DNA of 64,000 nt, taken from Eledone cirrhosa. Its lineage: Eukaryota. Each line of letters begins with the position of its first letter. Position 1 is the first letter of the stretch. The notes under the pieces are model-generated. The model did not search any database, had not been told where the DNA came from, and saw nothing but the letters and a program-made list of their open reading frames with translations. The stretch is taken from assembly GCA_964016885.1 (NCBI GenBank), contig OZ024741.1, positions 365,862,001 through 365,926,000 of the forward strand. The letters are read 5' to 3'. Positions 23,391 through 54,828 of the stretch are shown here, one piece after another. The position numbers and the translations under genes were made by a program.

Positions 23391-24645
23391 GGAACGAGTA
23401 GGAGAGGGAGAGGGAGTGGAGGAAACCCAGTCGTGCGTTGATAGTGCCAACTATAACAGGTCAGGAGGTCAAGCAAGTATACTAGGGAGGGGGAGGGGGA
23501 GGAAGTCGAGACAATAAGTAAATCAATATGGAGTAAATATATAGAAGAATACCAAGAAAGTTAAAAATATTAAAAAAAAAAATTTCTGGTTACTATTCCC
23601 TAACGACAGTCATCAAGTCTCTCACTGGTACTGCTAAACTATAGAAAAGTTTACTAGGTGGGACGGAATTATAATGAGGCCATTTTAAGATTTAGTAGTA
23701 ATCAACCGAGTATATCTTGGGGGGGGGGGGGGGTTCGGATTTAATTTTCCGTATCGAATTTTTCATATACCTCGTACGAGCATTTATGTAGTTTGCACTA
23801 GAATTTTTGTATCGTAGCGGCACCCTTAGAGATAGTATTAGTATTCATTTTCGGGATTCTGCATTGTTATTTCGTATTAGTTTATTTTTTGCACTGGGTG
23901 GTTGTTGGCCTTGTGCCTAGGGTAGAAATATTTATTTCGTATTAGTTTCGGGACTCTGAATTATTATTTCGTGGTAGTTTCTTTAGTATTTTGGCCCCCC
24001 ACTTGTTGACCTGTCACCGTAAGATATACTCGGTTGATTACTACTAACTCTTAAAATGGTCTCATAATAATTCCGTCCCACCTAGTAAACTTTTCTATAG
24101 TTTAGCAGTACGAGTGAGAGACTTGATGACTGTCGTTAGGGAATAGTAACCAGAAATTTTTTTTTTTTTAAATATTTTTAACTTTCTTGGTATTCTTCTA
24201 TATATTTACTCCATATTGATTTACTTATTGTTTCGACTTCCTCCCCCTCCCCTAGTATACTTGCTTGACATCCTGCCCTGCTGTAGTTGGCACTATCAAC
24301 GCACGACTGGGTTTCCTCCACTCCCTCTCCCTCTTTCTTCTACTGGCAGGTTCAGCTACCCCTTCCTTCCACAAATTGCCATGATAGAATTATGTGTCTC
24401 AACAACAAACTTCTGACCAATCCTTTTGACAATCACTTTTACCAAATAGGGAATTACCCCCCTGAGAAGCTCGGCTATTCATATACCAGGATAAAAATTT
24501 TCATTTAGTCCAGAATTAGCCGTCGAAACGGCTTGAGCTCAGCCGTCGGGGTCCTACTCGTTCCTATTACCCACTCTACTACCCTAAGTATTGAGTACTT
24601 TGGTGCGTTATGGTCCATCGGGTTCCTTACCACATTTCCTTCGTT
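23391..24645 (+). mobile_element. PLE-derived foldback element, family P1 (inverted arm + tailed arm)
   Basis: 23391-23718 inverted vs 24020-24335; hammerhead at 24456-24552; same family at 39679-39737, 45379-45570, 53357-54828. Confidence 0.85.
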
Positions 24646-25196
24646 ATATATATATATATATATATATATATATATATATATATATATATATATATATATA
24701 TATATATATATAGAGAGAGAGAGAGAGAGAGAGAGAGAGAGGGAGAGAGAGAGAGAGAGAGGTTCGGTCGACTTTCGTCAAGTCGGACCGAGGAAACAAT
24801 TTTTCCACTGGTCTTTCCAGTTGCTGATACTATATATATATATATATATATATATATTTACCATCTTTATTCTATATTTCCCTTACTATGGTGAGACTAA
24901 ACCAGTGATGAGTACCTGAGTCTCATGTGGTTTAATCATAATCGATAATTTGTCTTGAATGAACGAATATATTGACTGATCTTCTTTTTTTCATGTATGA
25001 TTCTACTTGTGTACATAATCTTCTATAGAATATGTATTTGGTACTATATACCGTGTTTCCTGTGCGATATATGGCTCTTTCCTTCTCTGCATATGCATAT
25101 ATCTCTTTATTTGGTTATTTAATATATATATATATATATATATATATATATATATATATATATATATATATATATATATATATATATATATATATT

Positions 25197-26213
25197 TAAG
25201 AGTTAAACAAGGTTCAATGAATACACCAAAGAATGAGTTTTACAATATATTGGAAGCACTCAACGGAGTTTTCCGGAGTTATTAATATTAATTCAAAATA
25301 TTAACAAAATAGATATTCTTGTGATCAAATTATATGTTATTATACATATTTCAGAGGTACTGAGTTAAGTTCAAGAGTACGTCCTCATCAGATAAAATAA
25401 AATGATATATGACATACCCTGACATGGTAGATGGTTAAGATTCAATCAAGGTAGTGATTAACTTATGACAAAACTCAATATGTATACCCTAATATTGAGA
25501 ACATGCGATAACGTAATACAAACAATAGAGAGGGTGCGTATAATAGATTTTAAGAAATACATGGCATCAATATACAATTATAAAATTTTTAATTTTTAAA
25601 AACTACTAGAGAAAGGGGAGGGAAAAGAAAGCATAGAGGAAGAAAATATTAAGTTAATACCTATTAACTTTTAAAACCTAAAACATGATTCTTTACCCTG
25701 AAATAACATAAATTAAATATTTTGAAAATTAAACGCCAACTATATTATACAGAAATCTGTGTGTACAGAAACTTGAACATAAATTACTCTCATTTGTCTC
25801 TCTCTCTCTTTAATCATCTTTCATCTGTTTTCTCAAGCCACGTACTAAATATTTTCTTCCTCTATGCTTTCTTTTCCCTGCTCTTTCTCTAGTAGTTTTT
25901 AAAAATTAAAAATGTTATAACTGTAATATTGATGCCATGTAATTCTTAAAATCTATTATACGCACCATCTCTATCGTTTGTATTACGTTATCTCATGTTC
26001 TCAATATTAGGGTATAAATATTGAGTTTTGTCATAAGTTAATCACTACCTTGATTGAATCTTAACCATCTACCATGTCAGGGTATGTCATGTATCATTTT
26101 ATTTTATCTGATGAGGACGTACTGTTGAACCTAACTCAATACCTCTGAAATATGTATAATAAAATATAATTTGATCACAAGAATATCTATTTTGTTAATA
26201 TTTTGAATTAATA
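25197..26213 (-). mobile_element. Foldback PLE end (Naiad-like pLTR) with tail at left
   Basis: Arms ~25282-25650 and ~25848-26213 are reverse complements; hammerhead in each; related to the 29.9-30.2 kb Naiad end. Confidence 0.85.
26101..26165 (+). ncRNA. Minimal type-I hammerhead (mirror copy ~25334-25398 -)
   Basis: attttat-CTGATGA-stem II-GAAA-tatgtaTA-ataaaat. Confidence 0.85.
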
Positions 26214-26238
26214 TATATATATATATATATATATATAT

Positions 26239-51942: not shown

Positions 51943-51968
51943 TATATATATATATATATATATATATA

Positions 51969-53312
51969 AATACGGGGTAACAAATAATAGTTATATGCAG
52001 TCCACGTAGGTGTAGTCCAGTTATGGTATTCCGGGTAGTGGATGATATCAACGCTTGGCTAAGTTTGACTCAACAAGGCGTTTTCATAGTGATGCTGCGA
52101 GTACGCTGTAATTCCTATGCTGTAAACACTTGGAGTAATAATAAATCAGAAAAGAATTTTGACATGGTTTGCTATACAAAAAAGGTTTTTAATCTCATTG
52201 CTGACAATTGTTTCTCTGAACTTGTAGGTCTAGAGATCGCTATCCGCTTGTTTTCACGTTACTCGATCGCCAATACAAAATTATAACCAGTCAGTTCTTC
52301 GGAGCATGCGAGAATGAAGAGGATATACAGGCATGAAAGGAATATACAGTCTACTATATGAAGTAGTAATGGCATTCAGTTAGAACCAACAATGCTAGTA
52401 ATAAATTATTTGAGATGATCACAACATCATACTAGGTGGGGGTTATAGTGTATCTAAGATTTTAGCGTGTAAAACTAGCTGACATGAAGCAGATGTTTAA
52501 AATTGACATGTAAAGAGTGTCGTAGGGTGTATTATATTAATTTTAAAGATAAGCCGGTGTTTATAATCAATGTAGGTCAGGTGGCCTTAATGTTCAGTTT
52601 TTATATGACCGATGAAGCATTTATCACTGAGTAGAATTTGTGTGGTCTATATTAGATGAGAATATAGTCTTTCTTTTCCATCCTCAATAACATACATGTA
52701 GGGGACAACACTGTCAAATCTAAATAATGGGCAAGTTAATACAGTATTAACACAGTATTAATACAAGTTAATACTATATTCATCTAATATAGACCACACA
52801 AATTCTACTCAGTGATAAATGCTTCATCGGTCAGATAAAAACTGAACATTACGGCCACCTGACCTACATTGATTATAAACACCGGCTTATCTTTAAAATT
52901 GATATAATACACCCTACAACACTCTTTACATGTCAATTTTAAACATCTGCTTCATGTCAGCTAGTTTTACACGCTAAAATCTTAGATACACTATAACCCC
53001 CACCTAGTATGATGTTGTGATCATCTCAAATAATTTATTACTAGCATTGTTGATATTGTTGTTATTGTTCTAAGTGAATGCCATTACTACTTCATATAGT
53101 AGACTGTATATTCCTTTCATGCCTGTATATCCTCTTCATTGTCGCATGCTCCGAAGAACTGACTGGTTATAATTTTGTATTGGCGATCGAGTAACGTGAA
53201 AACAAGCGGATAGCGATCTCTAGACCTACAAGTTCAGAGAAACAATTGTCAGCAATTAGATTAAAAACCTTTTTTGTATAGCAAACCATGTCAATCTTCT
53301 TTCCTGATTTAT
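51969..53312 (-). mobile_element. Foldback family P2: ~170-nt tail + ~520-bp inverted arms
   Basis: 52141-52659 inverted vs 52780-53312; TA flanks. Confidence 0.88.
53147..53254 (+). ncRNA. Hammerhead with CCGAAGA core and ~80-nt stem II (mirror 52199-52306 -)
   Basis: tgct-CCGAAGA-actga...tcaga-GAAA-caattg-TC-agca. Confidence 0.65.
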
Positions 53313-53356
53313 ATATATATATATATATATATATATATATATATATATATATATAT

Positions 53357-54828
53357 AGGAACCAGTAAGACCCCGACAGCTGAGCTCAAGCCGTTTCGAC
53401 GGCTAATTCTGGACTAAATGAAAATTTATCCTGGTATTTAAATAGCCGATCTTCTCAAGGGGTAATTCCATATATGGTCAAAGTGATTGTCAAAAATCAG
53501 TAGTAATTCTGTGGTTGCAAATTAGTAGGGGAGATGGTGGCTAAACCTGCCAGTAGGAGAAAGAGGGGAGGGGGTGGAGTAGACCCAATCAAGCGTTGGT
53601 AGTGCCAGCTACAGCTGGGCATGAGGTCAAAGAAGATACAGGGGAGGGGGAGGGGGAGGAAGTCGGAACGGTAGGTAGAACAATGGGGGGTAGAAATAGG
53701 AAAGAAAAAATACTGAGAGTGAAGAAAAGCAAATAAGTGTAAAGAAAAAAGTAAAGTAAATTAAATTCTACGACCTAGGTGTCAGGCTATTGTTAGGCGA
53801 GAATAAAATAAAGAAAGAAAGAAAGAAGTAAATAAATAAATAAATAAAGAAATAAAGAAATAAGTAAGAGAACTAGGTGGGACGGATGAGGCAAGGACCC
53901 TTTTAAGAGGTATAAGTACGTAAATGATACGGTGACGGGTCAACAAAAGGGGCCAAAATACTAAAGAGACTACCACGAAATAGACAATAAAGGTTTCCAT
54001 CCCGGGCCAGCAACGACCCAGTGCAGCAAAGTGAACTTGTACGAAATAATAATTCTGAGTCCCGAGAAAAATATATACTAATGCTAACTCTAAAAGATCT
54101 AAAACAAGCTACATGAAAGTTCGTACGAAATAAAGGTAGAATAAAAATTTGGCCCCTTTTGTTGACCCGTCACCGTATCATTTACGTACTTATACCTCTT
54201 AAAAGGGTCCTTGCCTCATCCGTCCCACCTAGTTCTCTTACTTATTTCTTTATTTATTTATTTATTTATTTATTTACTTCTTTCTTTCTTTCTTTATTTT
54301 ATTCTCGCCTAACAATAGCCTGACACCTAGGTCGTAGAATTTAATTTACTTTACTTTTTTCTTTACACTTATTTGCTTTTCTTCACTCTCAGTATTTTTT
54401 CTTTCCTATTTCTACCCCCCATTGTTCTACCTACCGTTCCGACTTCCTCCCCCTCCCCCTCCCCTGTATCTTCTTTGACCTCATGCCCAGCTGTAGCTGG
54501 CACTACCAACGCTTGATTGGGTCTACTCCACCCCCTCCCCTCTTTCTCCTACTGGCAGGTTTAGCCACCATCTCCCCTACTAATTTGCAACCACAGAATT
54601 ACTACTGATTTTTGACAATCACTTTGACCATATATGGAATTACCCCTTGAGAAGATCGGCTATTTAAATACCAGGATAAATTTTCATTTAGTCCAGAATT
54701 AGCCGTCGAAACGGCTTGAGCTCAGCTGTCGGGGTCTTACTGGTTCCTATTACCCACTCTACTACCTCAAGTATTGAGTACTTTGGTGCGTTATGGTCCA
54801 CCTGGTTCCTTACCACATTTCCTTCGTT
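53357..54828 (+). mobile_element. P1 foldback: ~600-bp near-identical inverted arms + tail
   Basis: 53357-~53957 inverted vs ~54147-54749; tail to 54828. Confidence 0.92.
54642..54735 (+). ncRNA. Type-I hammerhead, U3-A8 variant with extended stem II (mirror 53370-53463 -)
   Basis: acccc-TTGAGAA-gatcggcta...tagccgtc-GAAA-cggct-tgagctc-agctg-TC-ggggt. Confidence 0.85.

Follow-up and report, generated by a model that had tools for sequence, protein, structure and literature searches.

Head-to-head insertions of Penelope-like elements in Eledone cirrhosa end at two fixed element points and carry, with rare exceptions, a tail at one end only

Introduction

How Penelope-like elements (PLEs) integrate is still an open question, and the layout of their insertions, tandem and inverted and with a tail, has been described for 20 years. 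For endonuclease-encoding PLEs (EN+ PLEs), excerpts of two papers describe pseudo-long terminal repeats (pLTRs) in partial tandem, an inverted, 5'-truncated copy and a one-sided tail, located 'at one of the inverted pLTRs' or 'often only at one end', together with a bias for (TA)n targets (Arkhipova et al., 2013; Craig, 2021; PMC3846280, PMC8557442). In vitro work on Poseidon PAc from Anolis found that the PLE protein cuts each of the two DNA strands and extends it, and located the starts of reverse transcription at two neighbouring sites inside the RNA, which are non-homologous to the target and whose spacing corresponds to the tail (Frangieh, 2024; PMC11167929). As the first in vitro system, it did not show how complete insertions come about. 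Here, we analyse 64,000 nucleotides from Eledone cirrhosa (assembly GCA_964016885.1, contig OZ024741.1, positions 365,862,001 to 365,926,000 of the forward strand; hereafter the window), an AT-rich, microsatellite-rich and animal-like stretch of a 3.0-Gb assembly that holds insertions of four families, termed P1 (with the subfamilies P1a and P1b), P2, P3 and a fourth, unclassified one. We show that each unit is a head-to-head pair of 5'-truncated PLE copies in (TA)n whose outer ends fall on two fixed element positions, and that exactly one of these ends carries a tail in 120 of 120 assessable P1 pairs sampled from the genome.

Results

The three P1 copies of the window (Table 1) begin on the left with GGAAC directly after (TA)n (23391, 45380, 53358) and close on the right with GTTCC (24564, 45490, 54747), which is followed by a tail of 79-80 nt (TATTACCC...CCTTCGT) that adjoins (TA)n again (24645, 45570, 54828). 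Site 1 (…GTTCC|TAT) is the tail-less end and site 2 (…CCTTCGT|TAT), 79-80 nt downstream, the tailed end. The TAT at the start of the tail leaves an ambiguity of up to 3 nt in the tail-less boundary. The inverted-repeat arms of the three copies measure ~316-330, 55-57 and 603 nt, respectively. An earlier note on this DNA had described P1 arms of different length with the same outer ends, gttcc|TA and ccttcgt|TA, and this could be read directly in all three copies; of the starts that it gave, 23391 is exact, while 45379 and 53357 have to be corrected to 45380 and 53358. In the P1b pair a 190-nt spacer is colinear with the left arm, hence the tail-less arm is the long one there (~790 nt). The left arm of the P1a pair at 23391 consists of 13 nt of the 3' end, a jump of ~240 nt and then ~316 nt. 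A similar skip is present in sampled locus L038, where 5 nt are followed by a skip of 30 nt; like the join of the first 13 nt (23391-23403) to sequence ~240 nt upstream, it may be an early template jump just past initiation or a later deletion.

The same rule was claimed for the other families, with the tail on either the long or the short arm, and it is borne out by P2 (long arm, 35293-39631) and P3 (short arm, 43848-45133) and also by the fourth family (25196-26213), whose tail of ~85 nt lies at the left (25196-25280) and whose right end is tail-less. In all four families the tailed arm reads TAT after the tail-less boundary, and the tails of P1 and P2 end in ...CGT beside TA. The left inverted arm of P2 contains the GIY-YIG coding end in antisense. 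P3 lies outside microsatellite sequence and is flanked by an 11-bp target-site duplication (AAAAAACAATT, 43837-43847 and 45136-45146), which means that the cut was staggered and left two usable 3' ends.

Table 1. Element copies and related features of the window, by position
Feature	Position	Strand	Remarks
P1a head-to-head pair	23391..24564		left arm tail-less, right arm long (~830 nt)
P1a tail	24565..24644	+	80 nt, TATTACCC...CCTTCGT, then (TA)34
Fourth family, unclassified, same layout	25196..26213		arms 323 nt, 93% alike; both ends in (TA)n
P2 (putatively Neptune-like PLE) pair	35293..39573		left inverted tail-less arm ~800 nt; sense copy from ~36120
P2 open reading frame, reverse transcriptase + C-terminal GIY-YIG	36474..38852	+	one stop at 37620-37622; N-rich N-terminal stretch
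P2 tail	39574..39631	+	58 nt, TATTTGTTTTGACAC...CGACGT, on long arm, then (TA)24
Tail-less 57-nt arm, P1-related subfamily, without tailed partner	39680..39736	-	exception to the one-tail rule
P3 tail	43848..43905	-	58 nt, on short 358-nt arm
P3 head-to-head pair	43906..45133		right tail-less arm ~870 nt, GIY-YIG coding end in sense
P1a short palindrome	45380..45490		tail-less arm 57 nt, tailed arm 55 nt, central overlap 1 nt
P1a tail of short palindrome	45491..45569	+	79 nt, then (TA)n at 45570
P1b head-to-head pair	53358..54747		inverted-repeat arms 603 nt, 100% complementary
P1b tail	54748..54827	+	80 nt, then ~800 bp (TA)n from 54828

Exact end motifs of 23-24 nt occur genome-wide 16,559 times for P1a, 14,587 times for P1b and 12,150 times for P2, and reversed control patterns do not occur. 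The first 100 places each for P1a and P1b were sampled, ordered by position and not by structure, all with one exact 23-24-mer and within the first 36-45 Mb of contig C1 (loci are given as L numbers); 1-10 kb were fetched around each, every 3' end was classed against the natural reference ends of the window, and all unclean cases were inspected by eye. The class counts are those of these samples. They comprise 138 P1 events (Table 2), and among these pairs with tails at both ends or at neither end number 0 each. If ends were chosen independently, a mixed pair would have a chance of at most 0.5, and 120 of 120 would have P < 1e-36. The ends tabulated in the sample are thus fixed beyond chance. 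Tails at one end, a feature of EN+ PLEs, were found in the window families as well as in the sampled P1 pairs.

Table 2. Classes of P1 events in the genome sample
Class	P1a	P1b	Total
All events	76	62	138
Pairs with exactly one tail	68	52	120
of these, clean short	59	44	
of these, short, settled by eye (deleted, truncated or remnant tail, or arm with internal deletion)	4	3	
of these, long	5	5	
Tailed arm, partner without outer end (not assessable)	2	0	
Tailed solos	5	7	12
Tail-less end without tailed partner	1	3	4

Older subfamilies that lie as bystanders in the sampled loci add 27 clean one-tail pairs and a single tail/tail pair (L096 386-652), and for P2 one tail was found in 20 of 21 assessed pairs, L233 being tail-less at both ends. 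Thus, the one-tail rule is very strong in two PLE clades, but it is not absolute. The tail lies on the left in 56 cases and on the right in 75, with no clear bias.

Some amplified or long-read libraries are known to produce palindromes as artefacts, and chimeric molecules absent from the genome might in principle mimic such units. We give this explanation practically no credence. The same base-exact ends in (TA)n recur in tens of thousands of copies, short head-to-head forms have at least 233 distinct joints in Logan contigs of X1, an independent run, and tail-less ends running into (TA)n are present in runs labelled as three organisms (X1/X5, X4, X6). Contigs from four runs contained no piece across 53358-54827 and no empty site, and such contigs cannot confirm individual loci of the window.

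Some sampled loci show further rearrangements. At L223 (G000:C1:42149250-42150700) one P2 one-tail palindrome with its (TA)n flank is present in four tandem copies with a period of ~297 nt, a secondary duplication of a complete insertion unit. Tail variants were met at L048 3870-4003, L091 and L157, comprising a short tail that starts at an internal GGTTCC|TTACC… repeat, an internal deletion between two GGTCC/TTCC motifs, and absence of the last 10-13 nt. A near-repeat of the site-1 motif lies inside the tail (GGTCCnnnnnGTTCC). At L152 438-560 (G000:C1:29064900-29071500) a 20-nt tail-less P1b arm is joined to an unrelated palindrome (GGTCGTCAGAATGAAAATTT…AAAATTTTCATTCTGACGACC), which may be a chimera with the RNA of another element.

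Most P1 insertions are mini-palindromes of 95-128 nt. Their arms group around 50-62 nt and are hardly ever longer than 62-66 nt, and the total length of the P1b short form clusters at 110-112 nt. The inner junctions vary: among 61 pairs (60 C1 loci and the copy at 45380) 27 have an overlap of 1-9 nt, 8 are blunt and 26 contain filler, which includes A/T runs and in 3 of the 26 cases is an alignment artefact. Of 42 unique young P1b pairs, 26 have an overlap of 0-1 nt, and only two centres recur, twice each. Since centres differ from copy to copy, each insertion event makes its pair anew instead of inheriting it from a palindromic master. An inherited layout, passed on by a master that contains the two arms plus one tail and is transcribed and copied in its entirety, would fit the great abundance of the short form, the length cluster at 110-112 nt, the two recurring P1b centres and the match of the 45380 copy with L086. 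We nevertheless regard it as very improbable, because nearly every copy differs in centre, arm lengths and filler, even at 97-100% arm identity, because arms range from 17 nt to 5.1 kb within the same subfamily, and because the short units hold nothing upstream of about -62 and hence lack the TATA-like box of the long copies.

Symmetric short pairs have an internal palindrome at their centre, such as TGAGCTCA (31/31) or TCGA (42/42), and strongly asymmetric pairs such as 18/57, 23/58 and 57/34 are common as well. In other units a complete tail-less arm is joined to part of the tail only, either its last 7 nt (L099, L155) or ~45-72 nt of it (L032, L045, L092, L049, L038, L076). In these partial-tail units the tailed side is a separate complementary DNA (cDNA), which began at the tail end and halted early. 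In long pairs the longer arm can be the tail-less one (53358, L039, L096 with 1445 vs 153 nt, L097, L135, L144, P3) or the tailed one (23391, L031, L160, P2). These forms bear on a snap-back mechanism, in which a single cDNA folds and copies itself into the inverted arm and which excerpts of earlier work propose for palindromic junctions (Arkhipova et al., 2013; PMC3846280). Snap-back predicts like ends and equal arms, and therefore it fits some of the exactly symmetric pairs on internal palindromes and the lone tail/tail pair at L096, as expected from a tailed cDNA. However, it would repeat the same end on both arms, where 120 of 120 pairs have one of each, it cannot yield the 18/57 and 23/58 pairs or full arms joined to 7-60 nt of tail, and in the window the longer arm can be either one. 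As a general source of the pairs we consider it improbable.

Over all pairs with a difference of at least 13 nt the tailed arm seems to be the shorter one in 28 cases and the longer one in 3, which is in part a detection bias, because BLAST misses tail-less arms under ~28 nt. Stalling of the tail-primed cDNA at site 1 was considered and rejected, as no peak is found there by real cDNA length.

The short arms have an upper limit on both sides, both P1 arms ending 52-62 nt from site 1. In P1b a TATA-like motif (TATTTAAATA) is located at -87 to -78, ~30 nt upstream of the commonest arm ends (57-58 nt). At L150 4771-5169 (G000:C1:27005000-27010600) a tandem mini-array with a 257-nt unit, composed of a 62-nt arm, the tail and ~115 nt of leader, has the leader joined to the arm exactly at -62, which fits repeated jumps from the 5' end of an RNA. 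The limit of ~62 nt would then be the RNA 5' end. A full-length mRNA starting there would contain sites 1 and 2 once more within its leader, and the mini-palindromes could be double run-off copies of its 57-62-nt leader. A hammerhead or other ribozyme as the cause of the limit was also considered and dropped, none being found by Rfam.

The element behind P1 can be read at L135, where a full-length P1b copy is preserved, with an inverted tailed arm, a 5'-truncated sense copy and then the full unit. Site 1 lies at 3107, the tail at 3107-3187, a leader of ~90 nt follows, and the ATG is near 3277. The open reading frame (ORF, 3079-5439, 786 amino acids from stop to stop) shows a reverse transcriptase (RT), a C-N-C-X5-C linker, GIY-YIG and DKT, and is followed by a 3' untranslated region (UTR) of ~790 nt and a second, tail-less site 1 at 6227 in (TA)n. 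P1 is thereby identified as the 3' end of a PLE whose unit measures 3.1 kb. Since the tail runs on into the 5' UTR and the ORF, it is the next stretch of the element in a transcript longer than the unit, between pLTR and 5' UTR, a situation also known from PAc. Two features of EN+ PLEs are therewith at hand: a single ORF with an RT and then a C-terminal ...YIG(L/E)T... in L135 3079-5439 and 36474-38852, and the pLTR partial tandem with an inverted, 5'-truncated copy in L135, inverted arms being present in all window copies.

The L135 translation has C-N-C-PDRSI-C before the GIY-YIG domain and HSDKTGN, no CCHH by eye, and (TA)n as target. By these motifs P1 would match the Hydra clade; the clade name is provisional. 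Pfam gave no match for the P1 ORF, and its domain calls rest on motifs read by eye. For P2 Pfam gave a sub-threshold RVT_1 match only (E 0.0017), and the EN motifs were likewise read by eye: CTNRKCIIC and then VVYSIRCTEGTCRNMTTTYIGET, which would correspond to the Neptune features of a CX2-5CxxC linker and CCHH inside the EN. P2 and P3 look Neptune-like, again as provisional clade names. At the N-terminus of the P2 ORF lies an asparagine-rich run encoded by (AAC/AAT)n (36178-36560), which resembles the N-rich inserts that an excerpt on Adineta vaga Penelope ORFs mentions (PMC3846280). Rfam found no hammerhead, the ribozyme motif that EN+ PLEs carry in the pLTR, anywhere in the window at the gathering score, and none in 53300-54900, 35200-45700 or L135 2300-6300 at E up to 10 or 1, with models that minimal dimeric PLE forms may escape.

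Several other repeats were seen in the window. Two more inverted repeats lie in TA/ATAC-rich sequence (30212-30969, 361 nt, 88%; 42663-43304, 316 nt, 95%), the second with microRNA-precursor-like hairpin matches in Rfam below the gathering score. A 19-bp satellite (AGCAGTGTATTGGCAGGAG) occupies 3-7951 with ~418 copies at 84% match and a very strong GC skew of ~+0.6. At 14517-16890 a 310-bp tandem repeat (x5.3, 100% match) is directly followed by 2.4 reverse-complement copies; together they make up a large inverted tandem array, near-perfect and with (AT)n on its flanks. A sequence resembling short interspersed elements (…GGCACAAGGCCAGCAATTACCCAGTGCATTACTGG…) is arranged in tandem arrays of 178 bp (×1.9) and 77 bp (×12.9) at 46532-46873 and 50081-51074 and also interrupts PLE arms in L233 and L066.

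Discussion

The fixed outer ends, the independent arm lengths, the partial-tail units and the target-site duplication are the expected remains of two primings followed by joining. We therefore favour, with a probability of roughly 0.62, that a pair arises when both 3' ends of a staggered cut prime reverse transcription, one per site and probably on one RNA, and that joins between the two cDNAs then form at the inner ends, which vary. The (TA)n 3' ends may base-pair with the UAU that follows each site. If each site on one RNA can be primed only once, the near-absence of tail/tail and none/none pairs would be explained, and if site 2 were primed first, site 1 might be covered, leaving a tailed solo. 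It seems plausible that the second cDNA runs to the same RNA 5' end or halts early, and that it is afterwards connected with the first cDNA by a jump or by joining, either over 0-9 nt of overlap or through a short filler. The class frequencies fit independent use of the sites on one RNA, with site 1 used in ~120 of 132 events and site 2 in ~120 of 124. Two primings at two defined RNA sites with subsequent joining had been suggested in the earlier note, an idea that the fixed ends, the copy-specific junctions, the partial-tail units and the P3 duplication support and that largely restates an implication of the in vitro work of 2024. The note's remark that inverted pLTRs and tails had been described for PLEs is likewise correct.

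Three observations speak for a single RNA, none of them decisive. Partner arms have non-consensus bases in common, namely 5 in 29 P1a pairs (0.34 expected) and 3 in 33 P1b pairs (0.37 expected), the expectation being derived from random re-pairing and 62 of 127 unique pairs having passed the filters for length and anchoring. None of 79 assignable pairs mixes P1a with P1b. Finally, the lengths of run-off partner arms correlate (rho ~0.47, P ~0.01 per subfamily) in a post hoc subset restricted to overlaps of at most 1 nt. Priming on two RNAs in an asymmetric protein dimer, whose geometry forces one protomer to each site, would explain equally well why the outer ends are fixed, why junctions vary and why partial-tail forms exist, and it could draw on the AlphaFold2-predicted dimer and the extension of both strands in the PAc work (Frangieh, 2024; PMC11167929). 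We consider it unlikely, because it needs an extra assumption to bar tail/tail and none/none pairs (120:0:0), and because private variants are common to partner arms above chance, run-off lengths correlate in the subset and mixed subfamilies are absent.

Several points weigh against double priming on one RNA. Exceptions exist, namely the tail/tail pair L096 386-652, the none/none P2 pair L233 and the tail-less solos at 39680, L055 and L075. Over all run-off pairs the correlation of arm lengths is not significant (permutation P = 0.16 and 0.06). Shared variants could also result from gene conversion between the arms or from two RNAs of one source locus, and the subfamilies may not have been active simultaneously, which would make zero mixed pairs weak evidence. 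The sample is limited to the first 36-45 Mb of one chromosome and needed one exact 23-24-mer, and the mechanism is inferred from end products alone. A wider form of the same idea is put forward tentatively: one PLE ribonucleoprotein with one RNA might feed the two cut 3' ends to two fixed start sites a tail length apart, so that the tail would mark, as a footprint, the distance between two active sites. Copying one RNA twice would then account class-wide for the inverted pLTR, for one-sided tails and for the abundant mini-palindromes, the latter as double run-offs of the leader.

Tens of thousands of young, base-exact insertions amount to a product spectrum in vivo: one start site per DNA end almost always, tailed solos as the second commonest product, and almost no same-type pairs. 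It develops the notion of two start sites into a model that can be tested, in which double priming is coordinated and takes place, in the simplest case, on one RNA, and annotators gain a precise rule to delimit PLE insertions in (TA)n-rich invertebrate genomes. A search of publications outside subscription journals found none that states a rule of one site per end, or a one-RNA or twin-priming model, for PLEs.

Compared with EN+ PLEs as described in excerpts of two papers, the tails are longer here (58-85 nt vs 30-40 nt), and one-sidedness, 'often' seen there, is near-absolute for pairs here (120/120; 20/21). Most copies here are mini-palindromes of 110-125 nt, and Rfam finds no hammerhead, unlike those published descriptions (Arkhipova et al., 2013; Craig, 2021). 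P1 resembles the Hydra clade, as far as an excerpt describes it, in its single ORF, the ~3.1-kb unit, the CxCX5C linker, DKT in place of DKG and insertion into (TA)n, but canonical hammerheads are said there to be 'readily detected' in Hydra families, while in P1 none was found by Rfam (Craig, 2021; PMC8557442). The likeness to PAc extends to the two adjacent start sites at tail spacing, the cleavage and extension of both strands and the AT-rich target (Frangieh, 2024; PMC11167929). There, however, the sites lie 111-118 nt inside the ORF, whereas here they lie upstream of the ATG, which follows site 2 by ~90 nt in L135. The in vitro system showed no difference in start site between the strands, and its joined products are uncharacterised, whereas the genomic products here have one site per end.

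A further parallel is twin priming of L1, which Ostertag and Kazazian are said to have described in 2001: reverse transcription reportedly starts on one RNA from both 3' ends of a target break, and an inversion results when the cDNAs join through microhomology. Priming by both 3' ends on one RNA and joining with microhomology would be common to the two systems. In L1, however, the second primer anneals far upstream and the segments cover different parts of the RNA. Non-overlapping segments of this type were not met here. The two starts occupy defined sites no more than 80 nt apart, and both arms represent one and the same 3' region, as in the pair with 603 nt at 100% complementarity, which requires two rounds of copying of the RNA. 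The layout, the two start sites and the extension of both strands were already known for PLEs, and what is added here is the strict pairing rule, in its quantitative and its mechanistic aspect.

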